Virus record (IMG/VR): IMGVR_UViG_2974604416_000001
Location: 64,001-115,739 of that record
From: a virus
Taxonomy: Duplodnaviria; Heunggongvirae; Uroviricota; Caudoviricetes; Demerecviridae
Length of the DNA: 51,739 nucleotides
Strand: one strand, 5' to 3'
Shown in pieces: positions 2,081-6,464 of this stretch. The notes beneath the pieces are model-generated. The model saw only the letters and a list, made by a program, of their open reading frames with translations, was not told where the DNA came from and searched no databases. A program made the translations under genes and the position numbers. Within the stretch, counting starts at the first letter, position 1. The number at the start of each line of letters is the position of its first letter.

Positions 2081-2251
2081 GAATGCTTTGTCAGTGGTTG
2101 ACGAGATTGGATGTACTAGGGTTCGAATCCCTGTAGGCCTAGTGGTGGCTTAGTAAGTTGCAACCTTCCAGTCTCAGGGATAATGAGCATTCTCTAGGGC
2201 GGCCTGATCAGCTAGAGGCCCTTCCCAGCTCCAATCACTGACAAAGCGTTC
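2081..2251 (+). ncRNA. structured ncRNA with a tRNA-like T-arm inside a 20-bp closing stem
   Basis: 2081-2100 pairs with 2232-2251 with two G-U wobbles; internal AGGG-TTCGAAT-CCCT. Confidence 0.65.
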
Positions 2252-2269
2252 CTATTAAGGAGACACAGA

Positions 2270-2839
2270 ATGAAACAAGTAGTTATTTTAGGCAAATCGT
2301 GGCCTTACCTAATTTAGGAAAATGGTCACTGTTTATCGGAGTATACGGGAAAACCTATTAACTATTTTGTAAACTCGTAGGGATACCCACAATTTACATT
2401 GTTTAATAGTGGGAAAGTTGTAAAACCTCTGGTACACAGAGTACTATATGAAGTATTTATCGGCACTATACCGGAAGGTTTTGAGGTACACCACAAGGAT
2501 GAGAATCCCTTAAACTTCTCCCTAGACAACCTAGTACTTCTAAGTAAACAAGAACATTAGGTAGCCCATACTAGCAGGATGTATTTCTAGCACTGTACTG
2601 AGTGTGGCCAGGCTAAGTCTAGAAATATTAAACAAAAGTGCCCTACCTGTTAGAGCAATATACAACCGAAACTACACCTTACGTATCAAGATATAGTAGA
2701 CCTTTATCATAAACATAAATCGTGGATTAAGTAGGGTAATTAGGTAGGGCTTTCGGACAATGGATTAAGGAAGCGATTTATTGCCTTAGGTGGTAATCCT
2801 AAACAAATTAAGAGCTGTGCCCCCTCACCAGCCTCCTAA
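2270..2839 (+). CDS. HNH homing endonuclease, 7 in-frame TAG
   Basis: AAGGAG RBS; VHRVLYEVFIG...VHHKDENPLNFSLDNL HNH motif; open to TAA only if TAG is sense. Confidence 0.85.
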
Positions 2840-2899
2840 GCTGGAAGCATAATAAAAGAGGGAAGGAGCTGAGAGGTTCGATTCCTCCACAGTTCACCA
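2812..2899 (+). tRNA. non-canonical tRNA-like RNA; loop reads CCT in standard register; G3:U70 acceptor
   Basis: Acceptor GAGCTGT/ACAGTTC+A+CCA; anticodon arm CCAGC-CTCCTAA-GCTGG; T-loop TTCGATT; no D-arm before the anticodon arm. Confidence 0.8.
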
Positions 2900-2905
2900 A
2901 ATAAT

Positions 2906-2990
2906 GGGCGGTGTCCCCACATCGGTCTTCTAAGCCGATAGCATAAAAGTGGGAAGGAGCTGAGGGGTTCGATTCCTCCACCGTCTACCA
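2906..2990 (+). tRNA. non-canonical tRNA-like RNA; loop reads TCT in standard register; G3:U70 acceptor
   Basis: Acceptor GGGCGGT/ACCGTCT+A+CCA; ATCGGT-CTTCTAA-GCCGAT; same architecture as 2812-2899. Confidence 0.8.
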
Positions 2991-4068: not shown

Positions 4069-4398
4069 TTGGAGGCAAAAATGAGAGGTAAATTACAGCC
4101 TTTTACGTTGGATGACTGCGGATATGTTACTATTGAGATTCATGCTCCAGATACTACTATTCATCTAACCGAAGTTAAACTTAACTTTGTAGGTAGTCCA
4201 GATTCTATGCGACCTAGTGCCCGTCAGTTGGAGTACTGGGGTATTAGTGAAAAAGACTGGGATGCAAATATAATTATAGATGATAGCTGGTTTGGTGTTA
4301 GGCCTATTCAAGAAGTCTACCCACTCAAAACTATGGATTTTGAGTCCCAGGAATCTTACAACATTGCAGTTAAAATGGTGGAGAGTATCAATGCCTAA
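4069..4398 (+). CDS. hypothetical protein
   Basis: Follows a TATAAT...AAATCGGGA promoter; GGAGG precedes the ATG at 4081, which may be the true start. Confidence 0.7.
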   Translation: MEAKMRGKLQPFTLDDCGYVTIEIHAPDTTIHLTEVKLNFVGSPDSMRPSARQLEYWGISEKDWDANIIIDDSWFGVRPIQEVYPLKTMDFESQESYNIAVKMVESINA

Positions 4399-4732
4399 AG
4401 GTCTTTTCTTAGATGATGAACGTAACCCTCAAGATGTGACTTGGTTGCAGTACCCAGAAAATGTAGAGTGGACAGTAGTTCGTACATTCTCTGAATTTGT
4501 AAAGGCTGTGCAAAGCACTCCGTTCGGGGTACTATCGTTTGACCATGATATACAAGACTTCTCAAAGGGTTCCGAGATGACTGGCTATGATTGTTTGAAG
4601 TTCTATTGCAATTTCATAGACTTGCAAGGTCTAGCACTACCACGACTTGTAGTAGTTCATAGCATGAACCCTATAGGTAAGGTAAATATCATGTCCTACT
4701 GGAAAAATTTCTTAGAGGCAAAAATATCATGA
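4391..4732 (+). CDS. stand-alone receiver-like domain protein (cyclic-phosphate-processing receiver type)
   Basis: LFLDDERNP...SFDHD...VVHSMNPIG motif pattern. Confidence 0.65.
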   Translation: MPKGLFLDDERNPQDVTWLQYPENVEWTVVRTFSEFVKAVQSTPFGVLSFDHDIQDFSKGSEMTGYDCLKFYCNFIDLQGLALPRLVVVHSMNPIGKVNIMSYWKNFLEAKIS

Positions 4733-5751
4733 GTGTAGGATTTCTAACAGGCAAGTTCGCCCCGCTTCATACAGGTCACATTTATTTTATCAGCAAAGCT
4801 GCTACTATGGTTGATAAGTTGTATGTTGTCCTGAGTTATGATGGTAAACGTTTCAAAGACGATCCTAGGCTATCCCTAAAGAATCGGCTATTGTGGCTAA
4901 AGACCACTTTTAAAGATTTGCCACATATTACAGTTACTTTTGTTGACGAAACCGACTGCCGACCATACCCCGATGGTTGGAGCGACTGGGCAGCTCTGAT
5001 GAAGAGTGCTCTACTTAAATTTAACGTAACTAATGTAGATAAGATATTCTCCTCGGAGCCAGAGTACACAGAAGGCTTTAACAAATATTGGCCGGAAGCC
5101 GCGCATGTGCTGGTTGATGCGGAGCGTAAAGAGGTAAATATCTCTGCCACGGAGATTCGTGCCAATCCTTTTAAATTCTGGAGCTACATGCCTTCTATAG
5201 TGCGTCAGCATTATGTAAAGAAAGTATGTATCATTGGTACTGAGAGTTGTGGTAAAACTACCTTAACTAAATATCTTGCCAAGATTTACCAAACTTCATG
5301 GGTGGAAGAATACGGACGCAAGTTCTGTGAACAAGATATGTGCATGGATGAATCCCTGCTACAATTCAATGACTATGCACTAATAGCGTCTCGCCGGTAT
5401 GAAGATGAAGTGCAGGCCACTAAGACAGCTAACAAAGTCTTATTCGCAGACACCAATGCGTTTGTAACAAACTTCTACTGTAAGCTGTACGAAGGCAATA
5501 CTCACCCTCTTGTAGAAGAGTATGAGCTGTTAGAACGGTACGACCTGACTCTATTCTTAGATAGTGACGTAGAATGGGTAGCTGATGGGCTGCGTGTCAA
5601 TAAAGACCGGAGTAAAACAGACGACCTATTTAGGTCTATGCTAACTCTACGTAACATAGACAACTTTGGTAAGCTGATTTGTATTTCTGGAACCTACTCC
5701 GAGCGTTTGGAGAAGGCAATCAAAATTATTGACGAGGAGTTCTTCAAATGA
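4729..5751 (+). CDS. nadR: NadR-like NMN adenylyltransferase / ribosylnicotinamide kinase
   Basis: GKFAPLHTGH (HxGH), ISATEIR, and P-loop GTESCGKTT. Confidence 0.93.
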   Translation: MSVGFLTGKFAPLHTGHIYFISKAATMVDKLYVVLSYDGKRFKDDPRLSLKNRLLWLKTTFKDLPHITVTFVDETDCRPYPDGWSDWAALMKSALLKFNVTNVDKIFSSEPEYTEGFNKYWPEAAHVLVDAERKEVNISATEIRANPFKFWSYMPSIVRQHYVKKVCIIGTESCGKTTLTKYLAKIYQTSWVEEYGRKFCEQDMCMDESLLQFNDYALIASRRYEDEVQATKTANKVLFADTNAFVTNFYCKLYEGNTHPLVEEYELLERYDLTLFLDSDVEWVADGLRVNKDRSKTDDLFRSMLTLRNIDNFGKLICISGTYSERLEKAIKIIDEEFFK

Positions 5752-6464
5752 TCTATAAATTAGGGTATTTTGCTATACCGTATTTCTATGCGATCTACAA
5801 TGACGTTGCCACATTGCCTAACGGTCGTAAAGCTTACCTAGCGGCAATGCTTGCCACTATTGTAGGGCTCTCGATCTACTGGGGTGATACGTGGTACGGA
5901 ATGCTTAGTGCGTTCTCTGGTGTTATGTGCGTTGTGTTAGTTGCTGAAAAGCGGCTATCCAACTTTGGTTGGGGGTTGCTTAACTGCAGCCTGTACGGTT
6001 TTATCTCTTACCAGAATGGTTATTTTGGAGACATGACACTAAACTGGCTGGTCTATGTGCCCTTCCAGTTTATTGGGTTCTATCTCTGGAACCGTAGCTT
6101 GCAAGATGAAGTGGAAGTAACTTCCAAGTCCCTGGCTTGGTGGGATATTCTGAACATCGCTACAGCAACTGCGGTGGCTGTGTACATCGGACAAGAGATT
6201 CTGGTTAAGTTCGGAGGCAACCATCCGTGGCTAGACAGCTTTAACGTTGTTCTGTCGTTGGTGGCAACCGTACTGATGGCAAAAAGGTACGCTGAACAGT
6301 GGTTGTGCTGGATTCTGGTGAACCTCTCCGGTATTGCTATGTGGATTAAAGCCACAATGGCCAATGATGGGGAAGGTGTTGCAACTCTGATTATGTGGTC
6401 TGCTTTCCTCCTTAATAGCCTCTATGGTTACTACAGGTGGAAGACTACAGCAGAACGTGGTTAA
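5748..6464 (+). CDS. pnuC: PnuC nicotinamide riboside transporter
   Basis: Multi-TM protein with DSFNVVLSLVATVLMAKRYAEQWLCWILVN; coupled to nadR. Confidence 0.92.
   Translation: MIYKLGYFAIPYFYAIYNDVATLPNGRKAYLAAMLATIVGLSIYWGDTWYGMLSAFSGVMCVVLVAEKRLSNFGWGLLNCSLYGFISYQNGYFGDMTLNWLVYVPFQFIGFYLWNRSLQDEVEVTSKSLAWWDILNIATATAVAVYIGQEILVKFGGNHPWLDSFNVVLSLVATVLMAKRYAEQWLCWILVNLSGIAMWIKATMANDGEGVATLIMWSAFLLNSLYGYYRWKTTAERG

Follow-up and report, generated by a model that had tools for sequence, protein, structure and literature searches.

Two tandem tRNA-like genes that join a G3:U70 acceptor pair to the anticodons CCU and UCU raise the question of which codons they read, with which amino acid, and whether they decode at all. 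They lie in the window, i.e. the whole 51,739-nucleotide stretch of DNA analysed here, which comes from the 115.7-kb contig of a phage that uses TAG as a sense codon. The initial annotation regarded them either as unconventional alanine-inserting amber suppressors or as alanine-charged AGR readers that mistranslate host proteins. The genes, their parts and the reading frame that runs into them are listed below in window coordinates.

2111-2839, plus strand: HNH_3 homing-endonuclease reading frame with 10 in-frame TAG codons
2812-2899, plus strand: gene 1, 88 nt with encoded CCA; anticodon CCU, candidate AGG reader
2812-2819, plus strand: gene 1, acceptor 5′ strand of 8 nt, partner 2888-2895
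2814:2893, 2896 and 2897-2899, plus strand: gene 1, G3:U70, A73 and CCA of the acceptor end
2822-2826, plus strand: gene 1, P2 5′ strand CCCUC, partner GAGGG at 2858-2862; the helix encloses the anticodon arm
2828-2844, plus strand: gene 1, anticodon arm with a 5-bp stem and the 7-nt loop CUCCUAA (2833-2839), CCU at 2835-2837
2846-2848, plus strand: gene 1, P3 5′ strand AGC, pseudoknot with GCU at 2868-2870
2849-2857 and 2863-2867, plus strand: gene 1, A-rich linker and D-loop-like AAGGA
2873-2887, plus strand: gene 1, T arm with a 4-bp stem and the loop UUCGAUU
2906-2990, plus strand: gene 2, 85 nt with encoded CCA; anticodon UCU, candidate AGA/AGG reader
2906-2913, plus strand: gene 2, acceptor 5′ strand, partner 2979-2986
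2906:2986, 2908:2984, 2987 and 2988-2990, plus strand: gene 2, G1.U72, G3:U70, A73 and CCA of the acceptor end
2916-2920, plus strand: gene 2, P2 5′ strand CCCAC, partner GUGGG at 2949-2953
2921-2939, plus strand: gene 2, anticodon arm with a 6-bp stem (including A2921:U2939) and the loop CUUCUAA (2927-2933), UCU at 2929-2931
2940-2942, plus strand: gene 2, P3 5′ strand AGC, partner GCU at 2959-2961
2954-2958 and 2964-2978, plus strand: gene 2, AAGGA and T arm with the loop UUCGAUU

The two genes are 89% identical. ARAGORN called no tRNA at 2812-2990, and Rfam RF00005 (tRNA) matched neither gene even at E<=10. The Rfam tRNA-Sec model scored 28 bits on gene 2, under its cut-off of 47, and the Rfam scan also gave a 15-nt match to the tmRNA T-arm. 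Both genes possess canonical features in the anticodon arm (7-nt loop, U33, purine 37) and at the 3′ side (UUCRANY T loop, discriminator, CCA), and their anticodons differ solely in wobble base 34, in the manner of isoacceptors. The gap between the acceptor and the anticodon stem is 8-10 nt long, comprised of a 2-nt linker, the 5-nt P2 strand and an A, and no D-arm hairpin is found there. A gap of about 9 nt and a conserved segment 3′ of the anticodon arm had already been described, and both were seen again.

Other structural readings were inspected and set aside. No cloverleaf was recoverable from the sequence by removal of an intron-like segment. A tmRNA-like or minihelix reading is at odds with the intact and conserved anticodon arm and with a G3:U70 pair that is not family-wide, and a tRNA-Sec or allo-tRNA reading with the absence of both a D-arm and a variable-arm hairpin from the genes. 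Single-sequence minimum free energy folding gave two differing and weakly supported folds (z -2.7 and -1.7), and the fold was therefore taken from covariation instead.

A search of relatives for covariance yielded 40 distinct member sequences, 85-89 nt long, which were aligned with MAFFT (alignment A3) and conform to one fold. Throughout these 40 members, 99.4% of helix cells are paired, compared to 79% in shuffled sequences and ~40% with the 3′ partners shifted out of register; both sides are changed in 16 of the 26 pairs. All eight pairs of the acceptor stem covary. The initial annotation was right about G3:U70, A73 and CCA at the acceptor end, while the stem it gave as 7 bp is extended by an eighth pair which itself covaries (G:C in 35 members, A:U in 4, U:A in 1). 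The T stem has 4 bp, and the usual 12-bp acceptor branch is thus kept in an 8/4 split. The linker that follows the acceptor strand starts with U in 31 of 40 sequences. CCA stands at a fixed position in 40/40, although the search pattern had ended in the T arm, and U73 occurs in 8/40.

Two helices take the place of the D-arm. The 5′ strand of P2 (CCCAC and variants) leads via one A into the anticodon stem, and its partner (GUGGG and variants) is located 3′ of the anticodon arm. This 5-bp helix is 100% paired in the 40 sequences, with changes on both sides in three of its five pairs. Covariation hence upholds the earlier proposal that the usual D-arm is missing and that the 5′ segment pairs behind the anticodon arm, including the compensatory change between CCCTC/GAGGG in one window gene and CCCAC/GTGGG in the other. 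The 3-bp helix P3 joins the trinucleotide 3′ of the anticodon stem with the one two bases 5′ of the T stem. As A3 misplaces P3 in 12 shorter members, P3 was counted by anchored parsing, and its two strands match in 40/40 members. Four forms occur, AGC/GCU in 28 members, ACG/CGU in 7, ACU/AGU in 4 and ACC/GGU in 1. The AGC/GCT pseudoknot put forward as a possibility is in this way borne out, and since P3 crosses P2, what results is a true pseudoknot core. In 39 of 40 members AAGGA follows the 3′ strand of P2 and precedes that of P3, and GGA is invariant in it. Judged by its sequence, this segment may plausibly replace the A14...G18-G19-A20 portion of the D loop. The window genes carry every feature of the family, i.e. 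the 8/4 branch, P2, P3, AAGGA and an NCU anticodon.

We have also addressed the register of the anticodon. In the anticodon stem five of six pairs covary, among them the loop-closing pair, which is U:A in 19, C:G in 13, U:G in 8 and unpaired in none of the 40 members. Loop sequences are CUUCUAA (34 members), CUCCUAA (3), CUUCUAC (2) and GUUCUAA (1). The covarying closing pair fixes a 7-nt loop and with it the anticodons CCU and UCU, as annotated for the standard register, and it contradicts the 9-nt loop that would have exposed U-CUA-A in gene 2. The CUA noticed one nucleotide further 3′ is present in letters, but the special meaning attached to it does not hold: these are C35-U36-A37, generated by any NCU anticodon that is followed by A37.

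A covariance model built from the family (R1) gives members 96-109 bits and ordinary tRNAs <30 bits. Over the whole genome it returned exactly two matches, gene 2 at 100 and gene 1 at 96.3 bits, and the next score was 23 bits. Members were located by pattern scans in IMG/VR contigs, metagenome contigs and one Pasteurellaceae genome, and by BLAST in about 340 GenBank phage records. By host, the BLAST records include 304 from Vibrio phages (mostly ~114 kb) and 31-32 from Acinetobacter phages (T4-like Lazarusvirus and the jumbo phage ME3), together with E. coli phage Av-05, Salmonella phage Arash, one Salicola phage and one Aeromonas phage. The family accordingly ranges over T5-like, T4-like, Vequintavirinae and jumbo phages. 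The extra CCU copy is otherwise found only in L046, L059 and the near-identical metagenome contig L057, which contains an identical copy of gene 1. The Pasteurellaceae copy sits in a prophage-like island among toxin-antitoxin and Bro/antirepressor genes, and as a member turned up in just 1 of the 151 genomes of this bacterial family, it is mobile cargo there.

None of the GenBank records inspected carries a tRNA annotation for a family member, and our literature search found no published description of the family. In some of these records a 90-nt “hypothetical protein” is annotated opposite a rewired tRNA (L013:2991-3080, minus strand; L131:4614-4703, minus strand, in Maestro), an artefact that hides the gene. 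Vibrio phage D260 also holds an 83-nt tRNA-like gene with encoded CCA (L116:6333-6415, plus strand) that scores 29.6 bits with R1 and does not reach the Rfam cut-off for tRNAs; it is perhaps a non-standard tRNA of another kind.

Reading of TAG in this phage was examined independently of the gene pair. In the late-type genes of the window (8-42 kb), open reading frame cover rises from 0.22 to 0.93 once TAG is read as sense. A conventional tRNA-Ala(CUA), the presence of which had been named as evidence against unconventional suppressors, was looked for elsewhere in the genome and found: a cloverleaf tRNA(CUA) at genome positions 60691-60765, adjoining tRNA-Ala(UGC), with G1-C72, G2-C71, G3.U70, G4-C69, A73 and CCA. 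For codon meaning, 19,297 columns were aligned against the standard-code phage T5. In TAG columns T5 has Ala in 24% (background 8%) and Gln in 5%. Alanine in these columns and a normal tRNA-Ala(CUA) indicate that the TAG code already has its reader. Family members were likewise looked for in phages without recoding, and carriers open under the standard code include Arash, Av-05, Meroveus and ME3 (cover 0.84-0.95). Moreover, Av-05 and D260 possess the rewired gene without a tRNA(CUA).

The tRNA(CUA) itself is not confined to recoded genomes. It was observed in the standard-code phages Arash (L110:5174-5248), Meroveus (L113:9591-9665), ME3 (L115:12348-12421), ZZ1 (L130:2130-2203) and Maestro (L131:2437-2511), and the acceptor stems checked in the first three lack G3:U70. 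In Acinetobacter phages it is found near a small gene for an RF-1-domain protein / peptidyl-tRNA hydrolase.

The same codon test was applied to arginine. T5 has Arg in 44.6% and Ala in 1.9% of AGA columns, Arg in 46.7% and Ala in 3.6% of AGG columns, and Arg in 49.9% and Ala in 3.9% of CGN columns (AGR versus CGN, Fisher p 0.26 and 0.42), a comparison that gives the meaning of AGR under selection and not the tRNA that reads it, for which host tRNAs could suffice. AGR columns match Arg just as CGN columns do, and AGR therefore stands for arginine in this phage. ARAGORN lists 34 tRNAs in the genome, the sole arginine tRNA being ACG, with no AGR reader among them; CCU and UCU anticodons occur only in the rewired pair. 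Across other phages the rewired gene and canonical tRNA-Arg(UCU) show a complementary distribution. Arash, Av-05, Meroveus, ME3, D260 and Maestro have one rewired gene each and no canonical tRNA-Arg(UCU), whereas in T5 and ZZ1 the canonical gene is present and the rewired one absent. ZZ1 is T4-like and a sister phage of Maestro, and the tRNA clusters of the two match. We argue from this pattern that the rewired gene takes the role of tRNA-Arg(UCU).

Demand for such tRNAs differs among the genes of the phage, as assessed in genes with T5 homologues. Of the Arg codons, 51% are AGR in TAG-containing genes, against 21% in TAG-free ones. From TAG-free to TAG-containing genes, the AGG share of Arg codons goes from 5.8% to 24.9%, the AGA share from 14.9% to 25.6% and the ATA share of Ile codons from 7.7% to 26.5%, with CTA up too; this rise of rare codons is partly a general drop in third-position GC, and the AGG increase exceeds that of AGA. 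Gene by gene, the AGG share is correlated with the density of TAG (rho 0.60, p 2e-5). The extra CCU copy fits the AGG demand of TAG-containing genes. The phage brings its own tRNAs for most of TAG, AGG, AGA, ATA and CUA, and the TAG-containing genes look like a “dialect” leaning on phage tRNAs.

Identity elements were compared with published bacterial sets. The alanine set consists of A73, G2-C71, G3.U70, G4-C69 and G20, G1.U72 being described as an antideterminant against E. coli AlaRS, and arginine identity of A20, C35, U/G36 and A/G73 (PMC9976931). G3.U70 and A73 are in both window genes. Gene 1 further has G1-C72, A2-U71 and C4-G69, and gene 2 has G1.U72 and C4-G69, so that G4-C69 is absent from both and neither contains the full alanine set. 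The arginine elements C35, U36 and A/G73 are present in both, although the U73 of 8/40 family members departs from A/G73. A20, the main determinant of E. coli ArgRS, has no placeable position in a fold without a D loop. The invariant GGA was considered as an arginine-specific mark and dismissed, because it also appears in 6 of the 34 ordinary tRNAs of the phage. Position 3:70 is occupied across the family by G:U in 18, C:G in 11, G:C in 6, A:U in 4 and U:A in 1 of 40 members, a variability that makes G3:U70 the mark of a sub-lineage and not of the family. No significant association of G3:U70 with a weak 1:72 pair was detected in the family, because G1.U72 is common throughout it.

These observations bear on both functions originally proposed. 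Charging of the pair by AlaRS via G3:U70 and A73, wholly or in part, would make AGG or AGA ambiguous and lead to deliberate mistranslation of host proteins or to a statistical proteome. Such charging has points in its favour, as both genes carry G3:U70 and A73 (gene 1 also G1-C72), other tRNAs accept alanine once G3:U70 is transferred to them (PMC9976931), Ala is inserted in E. coli by allo-tRNAs that carry G3:U70 (PMC5389517), and for its tRNA-Ala(CUA) the phage already depends on the AlaRS of the host. We nevertheless hold it to be improbable: AGR aligns with arginine as CGN does and with alanine below background, and with AGR being half of the Arg codons in late-type genes, alanine at these codons would harm the phage first. 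AlaRS identity deduced from G3:U70 is further weakened by the variable 3:70 pair, by the lack of G4-C69, by the antideterminant in gene 2, and by the occurrence of the G3:U70 acceptor in standard-code phages and on the canonical tRNA-Arg(UCU) of T5. A variant restricted to gene 1 is conceivable since it combines G1-C72, G3.U70 and A73 without the G1.U72 antideterminant. Its sequence would then permit charging by both ArgRS and AlaRS, and in this TAG-to-Ala phage AGG, with its four-fold enrichment in TAG-containing genes, would be read as Arg or Ala late in infection. We give this variant a slim chance; if true, it would represent a second, partial alanine recoding via a non-cloverleaf tRNA. 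Amber suppression, with CUA read in a shifted register or from a 9-nt loop, draws on the CUA in both loops and on a genome that reads TAG as sense, but it is very improbable in view of the origin of that CUA, the fixed 7-nt loop, the isoacceptor-like difference at base 34, the conventional tRNA-Ala(CUA), and the carriers that use the standard code or have no tRNA(CUA).

The genes could also have no part in decoding. As tRNA mimics they might draw off host defence nucleases that target tRNAs (as a decoy or sponge), have a regulatory role, or serve as a signal for transcript processing. No tRNA known to function on bacterial ribosomes has such a fold (PMC11551756), T5-type tRNA regions hold other stable tRNA-like RNAs of unknown function, and the genes are fitted tightly between protein genes. 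We consider mimicry unlikely, given that the anticodon loop, U33, A37, T loop, 12-bp branch and CCA show the conservation of a functional tRNA, that the distribution is complementary to that of canonical tRNA-Arg(UCU), and that a CCU/UCU pair matches the AGG/AGA enrichment of the phage. Decay into pseudogenes, by rearrangements near homing endonucleases, would explain why standard tRNA finders miss genes that an HNH gene abuts; this is hardly credible for 40 distinct sequences from unrelated phage lineages with compensatory changes in every helix and invariant functional loops.

Taken together, sequence comparison points to the two genes being, most probably, the phage's own AGG/AGA-decoding elongators, tRNA-Arg(CCU) and tRNA-Arg(UCU), with a non-cloverleaf core. 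The pair would be transcribed with the flanking genes and then processed. The 8-bp acceptor and 4-bp T stem keep the 12-bp acceptor branch, the strand leaving the acceptor passes straight into the anticodon stem with the partner of P2 placed 3′ of the anticodon arm, and the GGA loop and P3 probably take over the elbow contacts that a D loop would otherwise make. ArgRS is expected to charge the pair via C35, U36 and A73, and possibly the A after GG, and the charged tRNAs would supply arginine at the AGR codons concentrated in TAG-containing genes. G3:U70, which the T5 tRNA-Arg(UCU) has as well, would be a lineage trait and not a working identity element.

The neighbourhood of the pair suggests how such genes could move. 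The HNH_3 frame overlaps gene 1 by 28 nt, and its stop codon is a TAA inside the anticodon loop. Seg- or HNH-type endonucleases also adjoin family members in Meroveus, Maestro and L009, and we infer that flanking homing endonucleases offer a route of spread between unrelated phages. No promoter or terminator was found beside the gene pair, which is packed tightly between protein genes. Just downstream (window 4280-6464, plus strand) is a run of TAG-free genes encoding a cyclic-phosphate-processing receiver domain protein, a NadR-like cytidylyltransferase with an AAA_28 kinase, and a PnuC-type NMN transporter.

Because standard finders miss the family, phage tRNA counts, as well as conclusions that a phage has no AGA reader, would be wrong for hundreds of genomes. 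The fold would provide a compact natural scaffold for asking which features of the tRNA core ArgRS, EF-Tu, RNase P and the ribosome require. The gene pair also appears as a part of a wider pattern, in which TAG-containing genes are written in TAG, AGG, AGA, ATA and CUA.

Among known systems, the closest in role is canonical tRNA-Arg(UCU) of T5 and ZZ1, which has in common with the rewired family the anticodon UCU, the T loop, the encoded CCA and the slot in the tRNA set. It differs in having a 7/5 branch and a normal D hairpin and in being found by ARAGORN and Rfam, whereas the window genes have the 8/4 branch, no D hairpin, P2 and P3, and fall below the Rfam tRNA cut-off. The T5 gene (NC_005859, 40773-40847, minus strand) shares the CUUCUAA loop with gene 2 and G3.U70 with both window genes; the ZZ1 gene is without both. 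With G2-C71, G3.U70, G4-C69 and G73, this T5 tRNA combines the majority of the acceptor elements for alanine in a model phage that uses the standard code. The genome's tRNA-Ala(CUA) is likewise phage-encoded and has G3:U70, A73 and CCA, but unlike the window genes it is an amber reader with a normal cloverleaf, the full alanine set and a true CUA.

Acceptor branches of similar design are known from (8/4) tRNAs and allo-tRNAs, present in phages and bacteria, some of which combine G3:U70 with non-alanine anticodons (PMC5389517). In (8/4) tRNAs the 12-bp acceptor branch is split 8/4, as in the window genes. Allo-tRNAs keep the D-arm and have a long variable-arm hairpin. The window genes, on the other hand, have neither a D nor a variable-arm hairpin, and the segment 3′ of their anticodon arm pairs back to the 5′ segment. 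Loss of the D hairpin itself has a parallel in D-armless mitochondrial tRNAs (reviewed in PMC7609411), which resemble the window genes in lacking this hairpin and in having a UCU anticodon for AGN-type codons. In mitochondria these tRNAs are flexible and reduced in size, with short T arms and adapted mitochondrial factors, whereas the phage form has its full length of 85-89 nt and a normal T loop, and structured helices replace its D-arm.

According to PMC11551756, all known bacterial tRNAs are cloverleaves, and a D-armless tRNA is accepted by E. coli HisRS, EF-Tu and the ribosome. The engineered “mini HisT” described there is D-armless like the window genes, but it is a synthetic deletion that depends on a pnp mutation for stability and has no pseudoknot. 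Set beside it, and by the evidence of conserved sequence, the widespread and unannotated phage family looks like a natural exception, functional with the bacterial machinery.
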